Positions 2,477 through 37,848 of a DNA stretch of 52,168 nt are shown here, piece after piece. The first letter of the stretch is position 1. Each line of letters starts with the position of its first letter. Made by a program: the position numbers and the translations under genes. Under the pieces are notes generated by a model. That model did not search any database and was not told where the DNA came from. It saw only the letters and a program-made list of their open reading frames with translations. The stretch is taken from IMG/VR virus record IMGVR_UViG_3300027917_000058, positions 1 to 52,168 of that record; one strand, 5' to 3'. Source of the DNA: a virus. Taxonomy: Duplodnaviria; Caudoviricetes.

Positions 2477-3007
2477 ATGAGCGCGATGAAGAACCATCTT
2501 GCCGATCTGGACATGGAAGCCGACCGACTTCTGAAGCTGGTGCGGGACGATATGATCCTGATCGCCCGTGGGGACATGAAGTGGGCTCCGTCTGGACATC
2601 TGATGCGAGTACTGGCCCACAACCTGAAGCGACTTGCCGACGTTGTGGGTCAAGGTGGACTCCCCGATCCCTTCCCCGTCTTCCGGCACGGGGAAGAAGA
2701 CACGATTACAAGGGATCTGCTGGAAGCGTTGAAGCTGATGACGCAAGAATTTTCCCAGAAGTTTCGTGTGAAGAGGGACTTTCACAAGATGCTGGCAATG
2801 GAAGCTGCCAAGAAAGCGATTGCCAAGGCTGAAGACGTTGACGCCGATGGGAACGAACTCACGCCGGAACCCGTGGCGTTTCTTGAGAGTGCGTTGTCAT
2901 GTGAACCGAACGAGGCTGTCGATCTCCTGACAAACTACGGTCCTGCGGTGCTGGATCGGTGGTACGAGAACCACCCTGAAGCCACGCGTGGGCCAGAAGG
3001 TACTTGA
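2477..3007 (+). CDS. Hypothetical protein
   Basis: In-frame ATG at 2477 after GAAAGGAAAGAACG, within ORF 2429..3007. Confidence 0.65.
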   Translation: MSAMKNHLADLDMEADRLLKLVRDDMILIARGDMKWAPSGHLMRVLAHNLKRLADVVGQGGLPDPFPVFRHGEEDTITRDLLEALKLMTQEFSQKFRVKRDFHKMLAMEAAKKAIAKAEDVDADGNELTPEPVAFLESALSCEPNEAVDLLTNYGPAVLDRWYENHPEATRGPEGT

Positions 3008-3996: not shown

Positions 3997-4683
3997 TTAG
4001 TCTTCCCAAGCGTAACCGAATCGCTCCATTTCCGCCCCGTAGGTATCCTCAATCCACAACCGACAATCCGTTGGCAGGAAATCTTGATACCGTTCGTCCC
4101 GTGGCTTCGCCTTGGTATGGTGCTGGGATGCGCTCCGGTGGAACTCATCCGGCTTCAGGGGATTCAGTCCCTCTTTCCTGAGCATGGCATCCAGATCGTT
4201 CCTCAAGTGGGCGAAACGCAACTCCTGGCAAGTAGCAATCTCAAAGAACGCCGGGAAGAGGATATGTTTATTCCGATAAAGGGCGGGATGTTTCCAAACG
4301 TAATCGGTGAACCTTTCCGGGGACGGTTCCTTGCCGCCGAGAACCCCGCGACCGATAGAATGGAATACCTCGAAATGGTTCCGGTGGGCCGCGTAGAAAC
4401 GCCAGTTGTATAAATCCTCATTGAACCACCACCACAAGTCCCCGTGGCGTCCTGTCTGGGGATGCCTGGGGTTGTCCCCACCCCAAGGGACGCCGTGGTG
4501 CCCTAACCACCGCTCGAAACCCCGGAGCTTCAGGACGTTGTAACCAATCTCCCTACTCCCGGTCCTGGGGTCAGCAATGAAAGCAATCCGCTTCTCTTTG
4601 AGAATCCACATAATCTCGTTGTCAGGTGATTCGATCCGAACGCCGCCACCACCGTCCAGGCGGATAACCCTGACGGGGCTCAT
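3997..4683 (-). CDS. Sulfotransferase family 2-like protein (divergent)
   Basis: FIADPRTGS (cf. FIHIPKTG), RNH..VFHS (cf. RNP..R..S), RFAHL..D and C-terminal Y..EMERFGY. Confidence 0.55.
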   Translation of the reverse strand: MSPVRVIRLDGGGGVRIESPDNEIMWILKEKRIAFIADPRTGSREIGYNVLKLRGFERWLGHHGVPWGGDNPRHPQTGRHGDLWWWFNEDLYNWRFYAAHRNHFEVFHSIGRGVLGGKEPSPERFTDYVWKHPALYRNKHILFPAFFEIATCQELRFAHLRNDLDAMLRKEGLNPLKPDEFHRSASQHHTKAKPRDERYQDFLPTDCRLWIEDTYGAEMERFGYAWED

Positions 4684-8452: not shown

Positions 8453-9316
8453 TTATCCGAAGCGACGATCCTTCCCTGTGAGTTGAATTGGGTCGTAAGT
8501 CGCGAGCCTGGAGCGGAACCGCTCCACCGATGCGGCATCCACCCACTTCTCGATTAACTGGTTCCGATTGAGGTTGGAAGTGATGATCGTAGCATGGCCT
8601 TCCCGGGCATCGATGATGTCCTCCACGATTCGAAAAGCATCCGTGGTCAGCTTCTCGGTTCCGGCATCTTCGTAGACCCAGAGCTTCGCCCGTCTTCGCC
8701 GCTCGCTGAACTCATCTACACGTCCTGTCGAGTAGCGATCCTGAAGCTGGGTTATCATGGCCCTCGCCCGATCGTACACCACGTTCCTCGCGTTGAGAAT
8801 CCCCATCTCCATGAGCTTTCGAACCACAGACACGGAGAGTTGAGATTTACCCGTCCCGGTCGGCCCCCAGATGTAGACGCCCCGGATGAATCCCATCGTG
8901 CCTTTGCTCGCGATCTGATCCATGAACTCCTGCATCGTGGATCCCGAAGGGCAGGGCTTCAAGGCTTCGAAGGTGAAGTGTCCATGCAGACGGAGATTGA
9001 TTCCGACCGTATCCATCATCGATAGGACGTTCGCCGTCGTCACCTCTCTGTACTCTGCCTTGGCGGGTACGACCATAACCTTCCGCGCCTTCAGGTAGCA
9101 CGGTCGGCAGATCATAGTACCGTCAGGTTCCCAGGGACCCGGGACTTGGAGCGAGAAGTTGTTACCGCACTCGCGGCAAGTGTACTCCGTGGCCTCGGGT
9201 AGTACTGAATCATCTTCGGGTAGGATCGGGGCGAGCCCCTTCCTCATCTCCTCCAGCCTCTCCTGAAGCTCCTCACACATAGTTGGTTTCCTTGGGCTCG
9301 TATCCTGGTACTTCAT
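8453..9316 (-). CDS. DnaC/IstB-like AAA+ helicase loader
   Basis: GPTGTGKS Walker A, WVYEDAGTE Walker-B-like, TIITSNL, RFRSRL, GKDRR; follows the initiator. Confidence 0.88.
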   Translation of the reverse strand: MKYQDTSPRKPTMCEELQERLEEMRKGLAPILPEDDSVLPEATEYTCRECGNNFSLQVPGPWEPDGTMICRPCYLKARKVMVVPAKAEYREVTTANVLSMMDTVGINLRLHGHFTFEALKPCPSGSTMQEFMDQIASKGTMGFIRGVYIWGPTGTGKSQLSVSVVRKLMEMGILNARNVVYDRARAMITQLQDRYSTGRVDEFSERRRRAKLWVYEDAGTEKLTTDAFRIVEDIIDAREGHATIITSNLNRNQLIEKWVDAASVERFRSRLATYDPIQLTGKDRRFG

Positions 9317-10251
9317 TCCCCCTCCAAATCTTCGGGAAAAAATTCTGGCTGGTTGCTACCGATCCCATCTTTCGAGACGAACGGCTGGGGCTTCCCGTCC
9401 CCCGGCTTCCGTCCGTTCGTATCCGACATCCGTTCTTCCTGTTCGTGGCGACGGATGTAGTATTCCAGCTTTGTCTTCAGGGTGAGGGGATTCCCCGCGA
9501 TCCCCCGGGAGGAGAGGTATCCCAGCTTCTCGTCCGTTGGGCTCACACTCAGCAACTCGTTCACCGCGCTCGCGATGAGAAGCCTCTGGTCTTTCGGTTT
9601 TAGATTGAAGAATCCCTTGGGTCCCGCAGAAGCCCCATCGAACCATGTCTCCACAGTCATCAGGTACCCCCATTGGTTCCCCGTCGTAACCCTGCTCTTG
9701 AAGTAATCCTTGAGAGCGTTCCTGAAGCCGCCCCACCTCTCCCCGGACAGCCGTTCATCTACCCTCGGATCCAACGCACACGGATCTCCCCCCCCAGACC
9801 CCCCCTTCTCTTTACTACTCTCTATTACTCTCTCTCTCTTCCTTATTTCGCGTGTGCGCGTAGTGCCTTCCGTTTTGGCAGGGTCAGTGCCCTGTGCCTT
9901 CCACTTTGGTGGTGACAGTGGTTTTGCTGTGCCTTCCATTTTGGCAGGGTCAAAGAGATCCCCTGTGCCTTCCGTTTCGGCAGTGACAGTGGCTTCTGAC
10001 TTGGGGTTAAATTCGTAGAAATCTGGACTTCCCCAGCCGCCCTTCGTCCGTGAGATCCACCCCGAAGATTCTGCTAAACGCAAGGCGAGAGAGACTTTCT
10101 TGGGTCCAGCCATGTGGAGGATAGTACGGAAACGGTCATTGGAAATCGGGTGTTTTCCCTTACCACGACTCTCGACAAAAATCACCACGCGGACGGCATC
10201 AGAATTTAACGCCATGTCTTCAGAAATTTTTTTCAGGTCCGCGTTACGCAT
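9313..10251 (-). CDS. Phage replication initiator (lambda O-like organisation)
   Basis: N-terminal wHTH-like region, internal DNA iterons, upstream of the DnaC-like gene; likely start ATG 10251. Confidence 0.7.
   Translation of the reverse strand: MRNADLKKISEDMALNSDAVRVVIFVESRGKGKHPISNDRFRTILHMAGPKKVSLALRLAESSGWISRTKGGWGSPDFYEFNPKSEATVTAETEGTGDLFDPAKMEGTAKPLSPPKWKAQGTDPAKTEGTTRTREIRKRERVIESSKEKGGSGGGDPCALDPRVDERLSGERWGGFRNALKDYFKSRVTTGNQWGYLMTVETWFDGASAGPKGFFNLKPKDQRLLIASAVNELLSVSPTDEKLGYLSSRGIAGNPLTLKTKLEYYIRRHEQEERMSDTNGRKPGDGKPQPFVSKDGIGSNQPEFFPEDLEGE
9806..9992. promoter_or_regulatory. Putative replication origin: four iterons plus a strand-asymmetric AT-richer tract
   Basis: (T)GTGCCTTCCrytttGGyrGkGwCA at 9863, 9893, 9928 and 9964, next to a pyrimidine-rich tract at 9806-9848. 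Confidence 0.75.
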
Positions 10252-10253
10252 TT

Positions 10254-10790
10254 CTACCGATCCCAGACGATCTTGGCAAGGTGGTCGCGATGCTCTGGCT
10301 TCGGACATTCCAGACCGGCCAGAGCGAAGAATTGCGCCTCGGTGTCGGTAGCAATGGGGGTCCCATCGTCTATCCGAATGGCCCGCCCCTCACTGTGCTT
10401 GAACCCCTTCTCTTGCATCTTTGTGACAACGTATTTCCCCAAGTCGTGGGGGCCGGTACGGATCGCAAAGATGGAGCCCCAGGTCGCCGGGGGCCAGACC
10501 AAGAAAATGTCTGCGTGTTGATCCGGCTTCGTGAGGTGGACCCGGATGTATCGGTTTCCGCCCTTCACGATGCTTCCCAGTTTCTGGAGTTCCAATCTGA
10601 GCGGGTCGAGTATCGGGGTCGCCTCATCAGAGAAAAGATCCGGGTTCATGTATGGCACCGCCACGATCTCGATGTCTCCAACGAACTCACGCTTCCGGCG
10701 TATCGACCCAGCGATCTCCACCCGTTTCAAGAAAGGCTCGATTCGCTTCACCAGATGTCCAGCCAGCCATTCGGCGTATTCAAGATTCAT
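10254..10790 (-). CDS. Minimal X-family DNA polymerase (palm + thumb only)
   Basis: IAGSIRRKREFVGDIEIV, DIF, IRTGP and TEAQFFALAGL...PEHR match PolX/Pol beta motifs. Confidence 0.85.
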   Translation of the reverse strand: MNLEYAEWLAGHLVKRIEPFLKRVEIAGSIRRKREFVGDIEIVAVPYMNPDLFSDEATPILDPLRLELQKLGSIVKGGNRYIRVHLTKPDQHADIFLVWPPATWGSIFAIRTGPHDLGKYVVTKMQEKGFKHSEGRAIRIDDGTPIATDTEAQFFALAGLECPKPEHRDHLAKIVWDR

Positions 10791-11448: not shown

Positions 11449-11997
11449 TCAGAACTCCATGTCAGGTACCGGCCACTCCACCTCGTCGTAGAGAGCCGTC
11501 AGGTTGACCTTGGGGAGCGTCACGGCTCCCGGGAGCTTGTAGTGGTGGAGGCCCATCTGGAGGAGCCAAAGGGCATCTGCTTCATCGTGACTATTCCCTG
11601 CGTAACCCAGACGACGAATCGCCTCGCCCACCATCACGATCTTCGTCTCCCCCTTCTTATGGCCGCCCTTTCCGCTGGCGAACTTCTTCAGCTTCGAAGG
11701 TGGCACCTCAACCAAAGGGATCTTTCCCTGATAGAACCCCAATCGGAGAACGCCACCAAGCTCCCCAATCTGGTGTGCCTTGAACCCCTTCGAAAAGGCG
11801 TAGCCCTCGATGATGACCACGTCACAATGGCTCGCCACACCCATGACTTTGGACAGGAGATCCCAGAGACGTTTCGGCCCCCGGTAGGATGACGTGATGA
11901 TCCCAGACTCCCAGCAGCTACCCAGGGCGGGCGCGGGATCGATGTTCCGCGCCCACCCCGTTGCCGTCAGCGATGGGTCAAATGCTGAAATCTTCAT
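11449..11997 (-). CDS. ruvC: RuvC-like Holliday junction resolvase
   Basis: AFDPSLTATGWA, VVIIEGY, ELGGVLRL, PSKLKKFASGKG and DEADAL contain the acidic catalytic residues. Confidence 0.9.
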   Translation of the reverse strand: MKISAFDPSLTATGWARNIDPAPALGSCWESGIITSSYRGPKRLWDLLSKVMGVASHCDVVIIEGYAFSKGFKAHQIGELGGVLRLGFYQGKIPLVEVPPSKLKKFASGKGGHKKGETKIVMVGEAIRRLGYAGNSHDEADALWLLQMGLHHYKLPGAVTLPKVNLTALYDEVEWPVPDMEF

Positions 11998-12452
11998 GCG
12001 ACGATCTTGGATACCCTGGCCTCTAGTTCAATGACCTCATCCTCCAACCCCAGGACTGCGGCGATGGAGCGGAGCCGTGCAATGGAAGCCTTGATTCTCC
12101 CTACCTCCGTCACCATCACGGCGCGAGCCTTGTCCAGATCATTCTGACAGGTAAGGATGCTGACGTACCCCTGCTCACGCTCACCAGCCCCCGGGTCCCG
12201 CACGTATGCGGGGGCCTTCAACACCCTGGTTTCCTCGACCACAACAAGGCTCACCTTACGAATGATCCTTCTGGCCTGATCGAGTCTATGCTGATGAGCA
12301 GCATGGGCGTCATCCCATTCAAACTCCCCGTGGAGTGGGCTGTCTGGGTCCTGGGCATCAGCGACAACGATCTCCGGGGTCAACGTCCCGTTCGCCCTGA
12401 GTAGGCCTTCCAAATGAGCGGCGATCATATCCCTCTTCGCTTCACCATTCAT
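11994..12452 (-). CDS. Conserved phage protein; putative accessory subunit of the RAMP/repeat-array system
   Basis: LTPEIVV..A.DPDSPLH..FEWDD..AA..HRL.QAR..IR motif; start overlaps the stop of the RAMP-like gene (TGATG). Confidence 0.75.
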   Translation of the reverse strand: MNGEAKRDMIAAHLEGLLRANGTLTPEIVVADAQDPDSPLHGEFEWDDAHAAHQHRLDQARRIIRKVSLVVVEETRVLKAPAYVRDPGAGEREQGYVSILTCQNDLDKARAVMVTEVGRIKASIARLRSIAAVLGLEDEVIELEARVSKIVA

Positions 12453-13228
12453 CAGGACGCCACCTTGAAGCCCCGACGCTTGACTTCAGCGTTGAAGAAC
12501 TCTAGCAGAGCTTCGGTTTCATGGTCGAAGGGCGTGGGGTTTTCCAGACCCGTATCCTGGGCCTCGCGTCCCCCCATCTTCTTAATCCTCGCGACCTCCG
12601 CATCCTCCTCCGCGTCAGCGATACGGAACTGACCGAAAGAGCCCTTCCCCTTCTCTGGCCGGTAGTCGCCAAGCCCTACCAGCATACCAGAAGCCGCGAT
12701 CAGTCTCGCGACCGTTTCAGCATTGAGGTTGGGGGTCACAAAACGAACGTGAAAGCGGGCACACCATTGGGGTAGAATTGCGCGAGTCCTGATGTCTGGC
12801 GCACGACTCTGTCCCGCCATTCGGACAACAGCCATGTGAAGCTGCGGCACTCCCCATACCGGCACCGTTGTCTCAACGACCTGCACCAGCCGCCCCAGCG
12901 CAGCCTTCGCCGCGCCGGGGACATCGACACCGGCTTGCATGATGCAGGATTTCACACCCCCACCGGGGAGGATCAAGCGTGTCTCAGCATCCTCCCCCGT
13001 CTCCCGATACACGCTGGCGCGGTACTCAGCAACGGGGTCATGCTTGAGGGTGTTTTCCTTCTCTGCGCGAGATTTCTTTTGTGATGGGAACAGTATTTCC
13101 TTCCGCACCTTCTCACTCATCGCGTTGAAGATGAGCGGGCTGGTGCCGACGATGTTTACCTCAAGGGTTTTTACCGTCAGTTCCAGAACGTCCATCGTCG
13201 TCGTATCCTTCTTCTTCTTAGCTGCCAT
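12452..13228 (-). CDS. Stand-alone RAMP/Cas7-like RNA-binding protein (Vipr-like)
   Basis: N-terminal strand V-IVGTSPL, LILPGGGVKSCI (cf. Cas7/Csm3 IPGS-lKG), RTRAILPQW and C-terminal G-rich loop GLGDYRPEKGKGSFGQF; AGGAG RBS. Confidence 0.75.
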   Translation of the reverse strand: MAAKKKKDTTTMDVLELTVKTLEVNIVGTSPLIFNAMSEKVRKEILFPSQKKSRAEKENTLKHDPVAEYRASVYRETGEDAETRLILPGGGVKSCIMQAGVDVPGAAKAALGRLVQVVETTVPVWGVPQLHMAVVRMAGQSRAPDIRTRAILPQWCARFHVRFVTPNLNAETVARLIAASGMLVGLGDYRPEKGKGSFGQFRIADAEEDAEVARIKKMGGREAQDTGLENPTPFDHETEALLEFFNAEVKRRGFKVAS

Positions 13229-13260
13229 TTTCCTAGCTCCTAGCGTTTGTGTGAAAAAAA

Positions 13261-13772
13261 TGCCATGCCGTGCCCACCCGATCCTTTCCCGGTTCGTCCA
13301 CTCCTTTCCCGGCCACTCCCAGACCGCCCCTCCAATCCGTTCCGTTCCACAATCGATCCCGGCCCTTCCGGTCCCATCATCCCTCGCCGTCCCACGCCAT
13401 CCACTCCGCGTCTGCGTTACCGATCCAGTGCGATCCTTCCAGTTCTAGCCTTTTCAGGCCACCCCCTTCCGTTCCTCGTCTGCGTTGCCACTCCTGTCCC
13501 TTCCAGGCCCAGGCGTCCCACGACCCCCCGCGACTGCGTTGCCTCTCCTCATCGCGCCACGCCATTCCCTTCCCGTCTGCTCCGCATCCCCGCCTCGCCG
13601 CTGTACTACTGCCCTTTCGCGCCAAGCCCTGTCAGACCACTCCTCGCCTGATCGTGCCACTCCCGTCTGAGTCTGCTTCGTCTTGCCTCGCCAAACCGCT
13701 CCCGATCACGCCCGCCCTTTCCCGGCCCCGTACAGCCTCTCCCCTCCGTTCCTTGCCTATCCCTGCCCAGAC
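13261..13772 (-). ncRNA. Pentamer-periodic (GGH-NN)n array; putative multi-unit guide RNA locus
   Basis: Plus strand parses as [DCC NN]n with 5-nt period. Anchors GTCTGC/GACTGC/GACCGC/TACTGC at 13322, 13410, 13478, 13532, 13575, 13607 and 13671. Ends in T7 on the minus strand (13254-13260). The repeat is seen; RNA status is inferred. Confidence 0.75.
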
Positions 13773-14537
13773 CTACTCTTCGTCTTCGAAGAGGGGAAGC
13801 TGATGTCGGTATGTAACCCGGGAACCGATCTCCACCACCCGCTGGAGTTCCATCATCTCGCGGAATACCCGGGGGCCGAAGATTACCGTCTCGTCGTAGA
13901 AGCCGGTGAAGTCTGGCTTCACCATTCTTCCATCACTCCCGACCTGACGGAGTTCGTGGTAGAGGGCGAAGACTCGCTGGAGAGGATTGAGTGTCTTCCA
14001 GTGGTGATAGTTGATCGCGACGGCAGCGACCTTCCCTTCCAGCAGGTATCGGACCCACAGCGGAAGGCTCTTGACGTTGCCCCTGACGGTCTTCCCGCCC
14101 TGGACCCACTTCGCCTTGTTCCTCCAAAGGAAGACAACGTCTCTGGGTGAGACGGTGATCCGCTTGCAGCCCTTCGCCAGAATCTCAGCCATCGAGTGAA
14201 GCCGGTCGGACTCACAGTACTCCTCGTCTTCCTTCCCGGGCCACTCCTCTGGCGGCGTGAATTGCGGGTGGACATCGATGAGTTGGATCAGACCGTTCAC
14301 CGTGGCGTCATGCCCCAGGATGTCAGCCTTCTTCAACTCCGTGTAAACCTCCTCCGCAGTCTTCTTGTCATCTGCGGACGGGGTGGGAGGGACGTACTCC
14401 GGTTGGTCGGGTTCGCCGTCTTCCTCCGGTGGGGCTCCGGTGTCCAGACCCTCTACTTCCGCTTCGACCCCTTCTGCCTCCCTGATCGCTACCTCGGCAA
14501 GGGTTTCCTCTTTGGATGCTGCAACTGTGACCGCCAT
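13773..14537 (-). CDS. Phage metallopeptidase-like domain protein with acidic N-terminus
   Basis: FLW...GKTVRG.VK, W..L...QR..ALYHELRQV and PDF.GF.DE...FG resemble the putative phage metallopeptidase family. Confidence 0.65.
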   Translation of the reverse strand: MAVTVAASKEETLAEVAIREAEGVEAEVEGLDTGAPPEEDGEPDQPEYVPPTPSADDKKTAEEVYTELKKADILGHDATVNGLIQLIDVHPQFTPPEEWPGKEDEEYCESDRLHSMAEILAKGCKRITVSPRDVVFLWRNKAKWVQGGKTVRGNVKSLPLWVRYLLEGKVAAVAINYHHWKTLNPLQRVFALYHELRQVGSDGRMVKPDFTGFYDETVIFGPRVFREMMELQRVVEIGSRVTYRHQLPLFEDEE

Positions 14538-17915: not shown

Positions 17916-19031
17916 TTAACCTCCCGCATGGGTGGCCCTGTGATCTTCAGCGAGTTTGCGTTCAAGGGCCTTCAGCACCTTTTCCAACAACTCACCGCCC
18001 TGCCCCAGCCCCTCCTCGATGAATTGTTCGGCTCGGGAATCGAGCAGATTCTTTTTTCTCGCGACATCCCGAAGCTCAAGGACCATCGCCCCCAACTCTA
18101 TGTCGCCATCGTCATCATCGTCAGATTCCTCCACAGGCGCGTCCTGGCGGGGCTCAGGCTCCCCAACCGGCTTCAGCCCTTCCACCACCTCGTCCAGAGC
18201 CTCCTGGGTCGCCACAGAGGCATCTAGCTCTTTTGGCGGGGAGAACTCGTCAGCGATCTCACCCGCCTCCTCCTCGTCCATCCGATCGAGTTCCGCCTGG
18301 GACTGACCAGCAGTCAGCATCAGTCGCTCCCGGATCGCGCCCAACCGTTCCTTCGCCTCGGCCATATGGAGAGCGGCACGCTCATAGTTCATGTCGAGAA
18401 CGAGTGCGACCTTCCAAGATTTCCCGACCTTATCCTTCCCGTCCAGCGTGTACTGATCCTCGCTCTGGTAGCACATCAGCTTGACGGGTGCCTGATATAG
18501 GGTGCCGAAGGTGGCGTAGAAATCTTCCAGTGCCGTCTGGATGTTGTTCGTACTCTCCCAGCTTCGGGTACGGAAGACGTATCTGCCGCCGAAGTGTGGA
18601 CTCGCCACAAGCTGGACCTGAAGGCGGGTATAGGGTCGGCACTTGCAGGTACCCCCCTGGACTCGGGCACATGGAGATTCCTTGCCATGCGCGTTCCGCT
18701 GGATCTCGCCGTCGCAGATGACCTTCGGCTTTCGGCCAGCGTACTCGGCCATCACCGTCATCAGATTTTGCTCGATCTCCGGGTACATAAGAATCGCTGA
18801 AAGCTCCCGGGGTTCGTCGCCAACAACAGCATGGACCGCCTCATCCCTTACGAACGCGCCATCGGCCCCATCACGGGCGCGAGTGACCACCTCGAAATGA
18901 TCGAAGCGTTCGGGTTGGAACATATCCGACCCGCCCGATGTCCTCTTCTTCTTCCCGCGCCCCCCCAGCTTAATCTTGCCGATCTCCTGTGGGCGGTGAT
19001 CCATGAATGTTCGTTTGATGAGCGGGCTCAT
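17916..19031 (-). CDS. Gp3-like ('recombination directionality factor-like') phage protein, probable annealing/recombination function
   Basis: GKIKLG, P..FDHF, P.EL...L, CDGE, C.C.PYTRL and GG.YVFRTRSW motifs; acidic tail; lies in the YqaJ module. Confidence 0.65.
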   Translation of the reverse strand: MSPLIKRTFMDHRPQEIGKIKLGGRGKKKRTSGGSDMFQPERFDHFEVVTRARDGADGAFVRDEAVHAVVGDEPRELSAILMYPEIEQNLMTVMAEYAGRKPKVICDGEIQRNAHGKESPCARVQGGTCKCRPYTRLQVQLVASPHFGGRYVFRTRSWESTNNIQTALEDFYATFGTLYQAPVKLMCYQSEDQYTLDGKDKVGKSWKVALVLDMNYERAALHMAEAKERLGAIRERLMLTAGQSQAELDRMDEEEAGEIADEFSPPKELDASVATQEALDEVVEGLKPVGEPEPRQDAPVEESDDDDDGDIELGAMVLELRDVARKKNLLDSRAEQFIEEGLGQGGELLEKVLKALERKLAEDHRATHAGG

Positions 19032-19375
19032 GCGTCTACCCCCCCTTCTGACGTGTCCGTGAACATTTTGGACAGCTTCACGGATTCGCTCAGAAGTCCA
19101 CCCACCAGGGTCCCCGGCAGGTCTTCTTCTACCTTTGCCGTTGCAGCCGTGAGCCGGTCCCATGCGTCCATAAACGCACGAGCAGCGACAAGGGCGGAAC
19201 GGAGGTGATTAGCCACCTTGACCAGATCCTCACGCAGCAATCCCTTCGCCTCCAGCACATCGGCGTCGAGTACTCCAAGATGATCGCTGATCGCACCATA
19301 CGTCGGCAAAACCGCATAGGCATCTAGAAACGCGATGATCTCGGTGGACACAGCCGTTGGTTCGTCCATCTTCAT
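19028..19375 (-). CDS. Hypothetical protein
   Basis: Coupled ORF in the operon. Confidence 0.55.
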   Translation of the reverse strand: MKMDEPTAVSTEIIAFLDAYAVLPTYGAISDHLGVLDADVLEAKGLLREDLVKVANHLRSALVAARAFMDAWDRLTAATAKVEEDLPGTLVGGLLSESVKLSKMFTDTSEGGVDA

Positions 19376-35330: not shown

Positions 35331-37848
35331 CTACCGCCTCCAGAACGAAGGTGACTTCCAAATCACCAATCTCCGGGGATGATCTAGGGAACTCCGCAGT
35401 CGGACCCATGCGTCCGATGCGGCACGGAATCACGTAAGTCCCGTAAGCATAATAGGTTCTGGACGTGCTTCCGGTGAGTGAAATCGAGCCGTCCGCATTG
35501 TAGGTGCAGGGGAGGAAGTCCCATGTGAACTGATCCTTCCAGATCGCCACATAGGTCGCCTCATCGAAACGGCGTCCATCGGTGTCCACCGAAGATGCCG
35601 GGATCGAGCTTGCTCCGCTGGTGAGATCCACATCGAGCCTCGCCGCATCCATCCAGAGCGGAACGCCCCATCGGCTCGGCTGCTCCTCCCAGATCAGTGC
35701 ATGGAGATGTCCGACTTCCCGCGATGTGGGCAAGGTGACGTTGAAGCTGATCCGTTCGTATGGGATCTCACGCAGGGAGATGCGTTGCTCGGTATCGTCC
35801 CGCGCTCGGATCAGGTCCGATGGATGGACCCATTCCTCTTCCACATCGCCGTTTGGAGGGGCCGGGAAGAAGACCGGAGTGGAGAGTGCATCTTCGGTTA
35901 TCGGCGTGCAAGGACCATCAGCGGGAGGTGCATACGGATCGGCTGGCGCATAGTTGTAGAGGTCTTCAATCCCCTCATCCCTGAGTGCCTGATAATTGAG
36001 TCCGAAGAAGACGAACCCGGAACTGATTTGTCCCTGTGCAAGCTGCTCATGCCACCACCCGGGCTTGCCGCAGTCGGTCAGGCAGTCGAAGGTTTCATCG
36101 ATGTCCCACTCATCCTCTGGCTTGCTGGTTAGGGCGAAATCCATACTGCCTTCAAGGACAGAATAGAAAAGTGGAGACAATGTGATTTTGCCACGGACGC
36201 GGGTTGTGTTGGTCGCCACATTCCTCTGGACCCAGAGCAATAGGGAGTACCAGTGCATCATGCCCAGGGTCACATACCACGAGGGGTCCCCAATGGGCTG
36301 ACCATAGATTGGAACCTCCACTCTGGAGCCGATGTATGCGATTTCCTCTGGGCCATAAACGACCCTGCTGGTGTAGTAAACACAATCTTCAAAGGTTGCC
36401 CTCAACATCAAACGGGCGTAATGCCCACCCGAAATACCGTCAGTATTCCCGAAACTCAGCCCCAAACCAACACCCTTTTGATCGCCCGTTTCCGCATATC
36501 CCTGGAAAACCCCCAATCCGCCCGTCATCATCTCGCTGTCCCGCCCAGGCCAGCCGCAGTAGCACCCATACCCCTGGACGGAGCCGGTCATAATGAACGA
36601 GCCCATGCCATCGGCCTCGGGGTCAACGATGGCTGATGGCAGTTGCGCCCCGTTAAGCCCCGCCCGAGAGGTGCCTTCCGCCCAACCCAGATAACCGCCA
36701 AACTTTGAATCAGCCCAACGCCTCTCAAGACGCTGATCCTCCGCTGATGTCATCCCGCCGATGATGAGGGAATATTCGCTCCAGCTATTGTTGTTGTCTT
36801 GGAACGCAGCCCGCACCATGAAGAAGAAACCGGCTTCAAGGTTGTTGAAGGTATAGGTGTACTGCTCGGCGGGATCGGTCGTGGTATAGCTCTCGATGGG
36901 ATTCGTCCAGATGCCTCCCAGCGGGATCATCTCGTACTTTGTCGCTTGCCAATCTCGGGGGGTTGGATGCTCGTAGGTGTCCAACGTGACGGTCACGGAG
37001 TTCTGAGTGAGTGCCGTCACGGAGATCCGGGGTCGGTAAGGCTGATCGGCATCTTGGACCGTGAAGTAAGCATGGTCATGGAGCGAGTCGCCCTCCCCAT
37101 CATTCGACCAGACCTCGACCTCGTAATCATCTTCAGCGAACCCGGAGAGATCCCAGGCATAAGGGCTCGTGTCATCCGTGAACAATGGGGTCCATGAACC
37201 GGCACCCACCGCCCGATATTGAGCGTTGTATGTGAGGGGATCATCATCCGGGTCAACGGACGGCTCCCAGGTCAGATCATGGCTCGATTTGTCCCATTCC
37301 TGACCGTCGTATGGTGCGGTGATCGTCGGGGCGGTCGGACGCCCATTGTGGATCGTGAACTCGACAGCAACGACCTGGGAGGAGTATCCCACCGTCTCCG
37401 CCCAGATTTCGAAGTCGTAATCGCCATCCGTGAGCCCACTGACATCGTAGTCGTAGACACTGTTGTAGAGGGCATCCGTGAAGATGGCCGTCCAGGCGGT
37501 GTCGGTCGTGAGCTTCAGCCGCGCCGTATACCAGATCGTCCCTTCCAGCGGGTCGGTGGATTCGTCATATGTGACGTAGAGCGTTTCGCTGACGATCTGG
37601 TCATCGTAAGGGACGATGAGGTTGGGTGCGGTGGGCGACGGCTCCGTGATGAGGACTACCCGGCCCAGCATCGTGACGCGAAGGTCGTTTTCCGCGAACT
37701 GCCCCGCCGCTTGCCGCCCTGCCTGAGTAACCCGAACGTCAGCCCCCTCCTGGGTAACGGCCTGACGCCCCGCTTGGGTGACGCGAACGTCGGCGTCCTC
37801 CTGGGTCGGGGCCTGACGCCCCGCTTGGGTTACTCTGATGTCTGTCAT
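35323..37848 (-). CDS. Tail protein with N-terminal RVTQAGRQ repeats, FN3/Ig-like domains and a distal-tail-like C-terminus
   Basis: Repeats seen directly; PTAPTITAP..LTW..S.DPD.D.LTY FN3 motifs; EQRISLRE.P and WGVPLW in the C-terminus. Confidence 0.75.
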   Translation of the reverse strand: MTDIRVTQAGRQAPTQEDADVRVTQAGRQAVTQEGADVRVTQAGRQAAGQFAENDLRVTMLGRVVLITEPSPTAPNLIVPYDDQIVSETLYVTYDESTDPLEGTIWYTARLKLTTDTAWTAIFTDALYNSVYDYDVSGLTDGDYDFEIWAETVGYSSQVVAVEFTIHNGRPTAPTITAPYDGQEWDKSSHDLTWEPSVDPDDDPLTYNAQYRAVGAGSWTPLFTDDTSPYAWDLSGFAEDDYEVEVWSNDGEGDSLHDHAYFTVQDADQPYRPRISVTALTQNSVTVTLDTYEHPTPRDWQATKYEMIPLGGIWTNPIESYTTTDPAEQYTYTFNNLEAGFFFMVRAAFQDNNNSWSEYSLIIGGMTSAEDQRLERRWADSKFGGYLGWAEGTSRAGLNGAQLPSAIVDPEADGMGSFIMTGSVQGYGCYCGWPGRDSEMMTGGLGVFQGYAETGDQKGVGLGLSFGNTDGISGGHYARLMLRATFEDCVYYTSRVVYGPEEIAYIGSRVEVPIYGQPIGDPSWYVTLGMMHWYSLLLWVQRNVATNTTRVRGKITLSPLFYSVLEGSMDFALTSKPEDEWDIDETFDCLTDCGKPGWWHEQLAQGQISSGFVFFGLNYQALRDEGIEDLYNYAPADPYAPPADGPCTPITEDALSTPVFFPAPPNGDVEEEWVHPSDLIRARDDTEQRISLREIPYERISFNVTLPTSREVGHLHALIWEEQPSRWGVPLWMDAARLDVDLTSGASSIPASSVDTDGRRFDEATYVAIWKDQFTWDFLPCTYNADGSISLTGSTSRTYYAYGTYVIPCRIGRMGPTAEFPRSSPEIGDLEVTFVLEAVDG

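Follow-up and report, generated by a model that had tools for sequence, protein, structure and literature searches.

VIPR (Viral Interference Programmable Repeat) systems, as described in 2026 preprints, consist of a RAMP-like protein, Vipr, an accessory gene, vap, and vrRNAs built of 9–16 pentamers, each made up of a GGY scaffold and a variable NN dinucleotide (10.64898/2026.04.26.720920). Vipr sequesters the GGY, and dsDNA is recognized by a 1-nt-skip rule, in which every NN pairs with two target bases and the third, mostly a codon wobble position, is left unread. A match of at least 80% of the NN is used as the criterion for a target (10.64898/2026.04.26.720920). The same source reports frequent internal degeneracy of vrRNAs, with related consensus and NNNGG repeats, and other VIPR types with staggered or ribozyme-spaced arrays. 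The targets, mostly in coding DNA, belong to competing phages and satellites (10.64898/2026.04.26.720920; 10.64898/2026.04.26.720927), and the SUSP1 VIPR silences the excision recombinase of a satellite (10.64898/2026.10.15.759431). For SUSP1 and Pseudomonas fulva, the inferred targets are reported on both strands, the ribonucleoprotein (RNP) binds dsDNA in vitro, and silencing is obtained with either strand (10.64898/2026.04.26.720920; 10.64898/2026.04.26.720927). According to the cryo-EM part of that report, residues R138, D177, W178 and R179 of SUSP1 Vipr hold the G1, G2 and Y3 bases of the scaffold, both guanines are contacted directly, and the pocket for the third scaffold base excludes purines (10.64898/2026.04.26.720927).

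The stretch of DNA analyzed here (hereafter, the window) is the complete IMG/VR virus record IMGVR_UViG_3300027917_000058, of 52,168 bases, from an uncultured phage (Duplodnaviria; Caudoviricetes). A preliminary description, made from the letters alone, had noted that the dinucleotides of one repeat unit, read with a skipped base, spell the tyrosine integrase motif around LGH, and had proposed a skip-one code with an anti-integrase function. We consider it very probable that the minus strand of positions 11994–13772 constitutes a VIPR locus of a non-integrating phage, in which one guide, g6, is directed against integrases.

Results

Layout of the locus

The array occupies an intergenic gap of 544 nt (13229–13772, minus strand), flanked by minus-strand ORFs at 12452–13228 and 13773–14537, inside the replication/recombination module of the phage. 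The ORF at 12452–13228, vipr, encodes a 258-aa protein assigned to phrog_4652 and predicted to adopt a RAMP fold, and is followed by a candidate vap accessory gene (11994–12452, minus strand) encoding 152 aa and assigned to phrog_15946 (function unknown). Neither protein belongs to a Pfam family, and both reading frames are intact. The ORF on the other side (13773–14537, minus strand) encodes a phage metallopeptidase (PF18894). The locus DNA was present in three sequencing runs, all of them DNA runs. A blastn search with 12452–14537 against cultured phages gave no match, and an Rfam scan of the whole window at the gathering thresholds returned 0 families. In consensus scans, a single site resembling a promoter was detected, which overlaps the start of vipr, and the array showed no terminator.

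The 52,168-b phage genome gave no match to the domains of tyrosine or serine recombinases (PF00589, PF00239), although a Gp3-like recombination-directionality-factor domain (PF18897, E 1.9e-24) is encoded at 17916–19163. Several other repeats are present in the window. A 71-nt tandem repeat (1.9 copies, 9863–9992) lies within a 331-aa ORF (9313–10308) directly upstream of a DnaC-like helicase-loader gene (8453–9316), and looks like origin iterons within an initiator gene. There is also a GGCCAG-type hexamer/36-nt tandem repeat at the start of the record (1–212), a 17/34-nt repeat at 1208–1324 and a 51-nt repeat at 37715–37830.

Periodicity and parsing of the array

The 5-nt periodicity of the gap is far beyond chance: the period-5 power was 18.5, the 99th percentile for the window being 6.95, and among stretches of 200 nt, the eight with the strongest period-5 signal all start between 13151 and 13651. 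The plus strand of the gap is C/T-rich, with a GC skew of −0.38 to −0.49, and the autocorrelation of CC on this strand was 0.34, 0.33, 0.27 and 0.16 at lags of 5, 10, 15 and 20 nt, respectively. The minus (sense) strand reads as about 111 pentameric GGN/NN units, each with GG, a third base and two variable bases, which are arranged in about seven guide blocks of 7 to 17 NN. The third scaffold base is mostly A (0.48) or C (0.31), giving scaffolds of the GGA, GGC and GGG types. A scoring parse performed blind to the preliminary reading returned the same units.

The guide blocks are separated by a short recurring junction, with the vrRNA sequence GGYAACGCAGAC, found at 13410, 13478 and 13532 (a direct-repeat family of three copies, D2, with spacings of 68 and 54 nt) and in degenerate forms elsewhere. 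The copy on the 5' side of g6 (13410–13421, minus strand) reads GGUAACGCAGAC in the vrRNA, and the two further copies extend over 13478–13489 and 13532–13543. Between g6 and g7, the junction is degenerate (13322–13329, minus strand; vrRNA GGG-CG-GTC) and resembles both the AC-GG-CG-GTA junction of L002, the closest viral relative, and the AA-CG-CA-GAC junction of the window. We found no long structured 3' tail; short recurring junctions are present instead, both in the window and in L002 (AACGGCGGTA). RNA folding of 13229–13430 was no better than that of shuffled sequences (z +0.72).

The predicted Vipr protein

A profile of the family of the 258-aa protein (A1) matched the PDB chain 36pp_D, the SUSP1 Vipr protein, with an E value of 1.2e-4 over 48 residues. 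The HMMER alignment placed R149, D188, Y189 and R190 of the window protein onto the scaffold-holding residues R138, D177, W178 and R179 of SUSP1 Vipr. Three of these residues (R149, D188 and R190) were invariant in 30 homologues, position 189 being occupied by F, W or Y, and the protein carries the GD[W/Y]RP G-loop of SUSP1 Vipr, with residues of the thumb conserved as well; no residue of the window protein was aligned with H17 of SUSP1. The AF2 model (pLDDT 84.9, pTM 0.81) had Csm3/Cas7 chains as its top Foldseek matches in the PDB, with E values of 5e-6 to 4e-4 and a probability of 1.00. On the model, the 258-aa protein is a predicted Vipr with a Cas7/Csm3-like RAMP fold. Distant homologues (about 30% identity, E values down to 3e-17) were found in 31 GenBank phage records, those listed being annotated as hypothetical; they include the Gordonia phages Pipp and UmaThurman, many Mycobacterium phages and one Pseudomonas phage.

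The predominance of A at the third scaffold base is at odds with the purine-excluding pocket of SUSP1 Vipr. The G-loop reads G-L-G-D-[YF]-R-P in the window and L002, and G-[VI]-G-D-[WF]-R-P in the aligned relatives with GGY-type scaffolds. In alignment A4 (residues 181–191 of P0001), Leu 186 and Tyr/Phe 189 characterize the GGA phages, whereas the GGY relatives have Val/Ile and mostly Trp at these positions. It is possible, from the eight sequences compared, that residues 186 and 189 of the G-loop determine the preference for the third base.

Related loci

Database searches identified 696 relatives of the 258-aa protein at E ≤ 0.001, and 567 of the 582 candidate stretches from IMG/VR encode one; these relatives were found by alignment-based searching, and a single-protein search of viral contigs confirmed none. 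In 74 of the 80 loci examined (the best 80 of the 567), at least one period-5 GG array of at least 120 nt was present within 3 kb of the gene and always on its strand. These arrays total 39,430 nt, versus 210 nt of complementary CC signal, in the 526,253 nt examined. The third position of 4,163 pentamers from the relatives was C (0.60) or T (0.21) following GG, and the last two positions were near random. Some of these arrays are 0.7–1.1 kb long (L040/L043, 4871–5990; L017, 2171–2900), which is longer than the three to four vrRNAs of SUSP1.

In 79 of the 80 loci, the gene immediately downstream of vipr is a vap homologue, and no match to the metallopeptidase or RuvC neighbours was found in any of them. 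The conserved module therefore consists of an array, the vipr gene, the small gene and an array. The model of the vap product is helical (pLDDT 87.9, pTM 0.43), with no fold match in the PDB at E ≤ 0.001. A comparison of 7,944 guide windows from the 80 relatives with 150 integrase loci revealed no exact 9-NN word in common.

The NN of the probable guide g6 spell an integrase catalytic box

Guide g6 (13330–13409, minus strand) contains 17 consecutive NN matching its target, and its complement reads LKVVQERLGHSSVTMTA, corresponding to box II just before the catalytic Tyr. The NN are given here as they appear on the plus strand, which gives the sequence of the target strand paired by the guide, since the vrRNA is the minus strand: AA (13334–35), GT (13339–40), GT (13344–45), CA (13350–51), GA (13355–56), CG (13360–61), CT (13365–66), GG (13370–71), CA (13375–76), TC (13380–81), TC (13384–85), GT (13389–90), AC (13394–95), AT (13399–400) and AC (13403–04). 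This run is flanked by two more target-matching NN, CT (13330–31) and GC (13408–09). The blind parse, with NN followed by xCC, yields the same dinucleotides over 13330–13409 as the preliminary description, which had also correctly placed one extra base, at 13349, and scaffolds shortened to CC at 13382–83 and 13401–02. To these should be added a third such scaffold, at 13332–33, making three 4-nt units in all, and two scaffolds lacking CC on the plus strand, ATC (13352–54) and TCA (13377–79), which read GAT and TGA in the vrRNA. The fourth dinucleotide, left as CA or AC in that description, is CA (Gln) and not AC, according to the natural target, and the run of 15 dinucleotides recognized at the time was real but too short, as 17 match.

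The 30-base gapped pattern of the 15 NN, with one N between successive dinucleotides, had exactly two matches in IMG/VR (L082 and L083), the chance of such a match being 4^-30, or about 9e-19, per position. Both matches lie in a 396-aa ORF with a Phage_integrase domain (PF00589, E 1e-18). In L082, the ORF extends from 436 to 1626, with PF00589 over residues 185–377, and the guide site (1498–1548, residues 355–371) is matched in frame by 17/17 NN; the YGH tyrosine lies three residues past its end. As the ORF has 1,065 nt (355 codons) ahead of the match, the NN fall on codon positions 1 and 2. The extension by one NN on each side gave the 17/17 match to LKVVQERLGHSSVTMTA, and the next NN on either side, at the junctions, are mismatched. 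The residues read are L-K-V-V-Q-E-R-L-G-H-S-S-V-T-M-T-A, and on the sense strand, codon positions 1 and 2 are read and the wobble position is skipped. The skip-one code proposed initially is the published 1-nt-skip rule of VIPR, and the assignment of the unit to the LGH motif preceding the catalytic Tyr was also correct. That proposal would have been undermined by the lack of a natural target in codon phase; such a target exists, with 17/17 NN, in two provirus integrases.

Both target records are proviruses, one of 19.6 kb and 41% complete and the other (G002) of 57.2 kb and 100% complete, in which the match lies 71–96 nt from the end of the record. The phage and G002 have only two ORFs in common (25–31% identity), with similar G+C contents. 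The role proposed for the guide presumes that the phage and the targeted proviruses have a common host.

A 22-base core of the pattern was found in at least 120 bacterial genome loci and 12 viral contigs. Among the matches listed, the taxa include Actinomycetota, Alphaproteobacteria, Bacillota, Chloroflexota and others; LG[HQ]SS followed by Tyr was in frame in 116 of the 120 genome loci listed, and PF00589 was detected in 112 of the 118 frames scanned. The 120 genome loci listed and the two viral loci together gave 122 matches, which scored 15 (n = 2), 14 (n = 20), 13 (n = 70), 12 (n = 29) or 11 (n = 1) of the 15 NN, and the best imperfect matches listed were mostly to an alphaproteobacterial integrase type. 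At the skipped positions, the bases differ freely from match to match. In 15 of the 120 loci listed (L087, L090, L091, L106, L112 and 10 others), the open frame around the core is shorter than 100 aa; these frames appear to be integrase remnants or fragments at contig ends.

No exact match to the 30-base pattern was found in a genome collection of 185,579 species. Two of 301 sampled genomes of one order, including the chosen centre, matched it with at most two mismatches, and the pattern read backwards matched 0 of the same 301 genomes. The 17-NN pattern was not found, at up to three mismatches, in five genomes with targets of 14/15 NN.

Irregular units in g6

The irregularities of g6 (among its 17 units, three of 4 nt and two with scaffolds that lack GG, besides the extra base) could be taken as signs that this VIPR guide is in decay or no longer active, a relic in which the NN keep an old target and the irregular scaffolds stop Vipr assembly. 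The array is also weaker in periodicity than those of the relatives L017, L042 and L002, and SUSP1 Vipr, in the structural report cited above, contacts both guanines of the scaffold. However, all 34 read bases match the natural target despite the drift of the scaffolds, and neutral decay would not be expected to leave the read bases intact while the scaffolds drifted. Furthermore, 4-nt units are common in the relatives (684 of the 8,864 units parsed), the VIPR authors themselves report internal degeneracy and NNNGG-type repeats (10.64898/2026.04.26.720920), and the vipr and vap frames are intact. We therefore consider such decay unlikely and retain g6 as a probable working guide, although it may load poorly on Vipr, given its 4-nt units, its extra base and its two scaffolds without GG.

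Guide g7 and the relative L002

Guide g7 (13260–13321, minus strand; 13 NN), with a T7 run and the start of vipr after it, reads in the same orientation as g6. Its complement reads [IM][IM]VHDLRRTFRT[HQ], corresponding to the HxLR box of integrases. A 10-NN core of g7 had 18 metagenome matches; PF00589 was present in 10 of the 17 frames scanned (one frame of 14 aa was omitted), and an eleventh match, to a short fragment, shows the motif in the same context. The best integrase match to the whole guide had 11/13 NN, and four non-integrase matches reached 12/13. The single viral match to the core, in an unrelated 385-aa ORF and on the other strand, was taken as a chance match. The earlier observation that two adjacent units point to the two conserved motifs of one enzyme family is thus borne out, the g7 core matching the HxLRRTFRT box in 10 integrases confirmed by Pfam.

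L002 has GGA scaffolds, as in the window (third base A, 0.84). One of its guides has seven consecutive NN in common with g7 and reads VHDLRRTAST; at a threshold of 8/10, it gave 22 matches with HxLR-box loci, with 0 for the backwards control. Two related phages thus carry guides, both reading HDLRRT, that by sequence are directed to the same integrase box and appear tuned to different variants of it. In L002, positions 2680–3000 and 4030–4480 contain highly regular GGA arrays, with blocks of about 10–12 NN and an invariant junction (AACGGCGGTA), and L002 is a cleaner model than the window for the vrRNA architecture of this sub-clade.

As g6 and g7 are both complementary to the coding strand, they might act on integrase mRNA rather than on DNA, through gapped antisense pairing with the transcript. 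However, a strand bias cannot rest on two guides, and the inferred targets of the SUSP1 and P. fulva systems are reported on both strands, with binding of dsDNA in vitro and silencing through either strand. We consider action on mRNA very unlikely and favour DNA as the target of both guides.

Other guides and controls

No target was identified for the five other guides within the scans made: g1 (11 NN) and g5 (12 NN), compared with viral contigs, each had 0 exact matches, and none of the other guides of the array matched the target proviruses G001 and G002. Two local matches to g1 beside vipr (8/10; L007 and L011) were rejected, as neither is in codon phase or can be extended, and matches at this level are expected by chance. 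None of the 10-NN windows of the array matches the phage's own 52,168-b genome at 8/10 or more, so there is no self-target at this threshold.

The spacing of GG by N3 would suit a two-tetrad G-quadruplex, and the strong GC skew and the location in a replication/recombination module could suggest a non-guide array, such as a G-quadruplex/R-loop strand at a replication origin, or a track for a TRAP-like ring. Exact integrase codons in the spacer dinucleotides are not predicted by any such array, the adjoining protein, a RAMP, is related to Vipr, most scaffolds of the relatives have C as the third base, which is poor for G-quadruplex loops, and the 71-nt repeats at 9863–9992 are a better candidate for an origin. 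A non-guide array is therefore extremely improbable; a TRAP-like track, a CsrA sponge, a G-quadruplex/R-loop origin, a Rho site, a centromere and primase sites were all dropped, because the NN spell targets. That the integrase-like decoding arose by chance from a flexible parse, in which an extra base, scaffolds of reduced length and two-base codons of ambiguous meaning were allowed, has a negligible probability, since the independent scoring parse agrees, 30–34 specified bases match a natural sequence, the core read backwards matched 0 viral contigs (12 when read forward), shuffled NN orders gave 0 local matches, and g1 and g5, guides of similar length, also gave 0; the decoding is thus beyond chance, as had been surmised, with two exact matches to the 30-base pattern in IMG/VR.

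Discussion

By analogy with SUSP1, we infer that the array is transcribed and processed, and that it assembles with Vipr into an RNP that binds DNA and silences its target. In this scheme, transcription of the operon would include the vrRNA array, whose RNA would be cut at the short junctions, and each GG(N) scaffold would be bound by one Vipr protomer, the protomers forming a helical filament with the NN dinucleotides exposed. Of each three bases in a dsDNA target, two would then pair with the exposed NN. With g6 bound at box II, the integrase gene of a resident provirus or satellite would no longer be transcribed, and the silenced element would be unable to excise and compete during infection. 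Synonymous changes would offer the targeted element no escape. The phage thus probably uses g6 to silence integrated rivals, as SUSP1 does with its satellite.

Because only codon positions 1 and 2 are read, one guide could cover integrases across lineages of prophages, satellites and ICEs. We suggest, tentatively and with rather low confidence, that g6 and g7 are pan-integrase guides, directed to the LGH and HxLR boxes, respectively, that work despite their 4-nt and 6-nt units and GGA scaffolds. If this were true, the NN register in this Vipr clade would tolerate a variable scaffold length and the pocket for the third base would accept purines. The irregular units and GGA scaffolds provide a natural test of how strictly 5-nt GGY units are needed in Vipr filaments. 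VIPR systems have been described so far from E. coli and Pseudomonas phages, and the present results extend them to a large uncultured clade (567 viral loci), with a clean natural pair of guide and target in which 17/17 read dinucleotides are matched. They also provide independent support for the view that phages may immobilize integrated rivals by means of gapped guides, at sites that would be unable to mutate away.

Sites for TRAP, as in the trp leader of Bacillus, are triplets separated by spacers of 2–3 nt that carry no information. The array resembles them in its short conserved triplet, its variable 2-nt spacers and its unstructured RNA, but its spacers spell a target and the neighbouring protein has a predicted RAMP fold rather than a TRAP fold. 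The CRISPR proteins Csm3, Cmr4, type VII Cas7 and Cas7-11 share with this Vipr the predicted fold, and form an oligomer on a guide RNA that flips bases at regular intervals, as this Vipr would. Unlike them, however, the locus lacks a CRISPR array, cas genes and a second RRM, and its target would be read with gaps; three bases would be sequestered in each period of 5 nt, whereas the period is 6 nt in the CRISPR Cas7 family, with one base flipped.

The closest likeness is to the type II VIPR of SUSP1 and Pseudomonas fulva, with which the locus shares a phage-borne RAMP-like Vipr, a small accessory gene, sense-strand GGN/NN arrays, a 1-nt-skip code with the wobble position skipped, targets in competing mobile elements and the absence of self-targeting. 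Nevertheless, the Vipr of the window has 258 aa, as opposed to 202 aa in SUSP1, and the sequence similarity between the two is weak (E 1.2e-4 over 48 residues). In place of GGY, the scaffolds are GGA, GGC or GGG, the units are sometimes of 4 or 6 nt, g6 has 17 NN whereas 9–16 repeats are reported for SUSP1 and P. fulva, and a junction of about 10–12 nt (AACGCAGAC) was observed, with no sign of a structured 3' tail of about 40 nt. The target here is box II of the catalytic domain of a tyrosine integrase. A system of this kind, with its gapped code and its use against a recombinase, is already in print (2026), and the variant features of the locus are its GGA scaffolds, its variable unit length, the short junction seen in place of a tail, and the paired guides to both catalytic boxes of the integrase.
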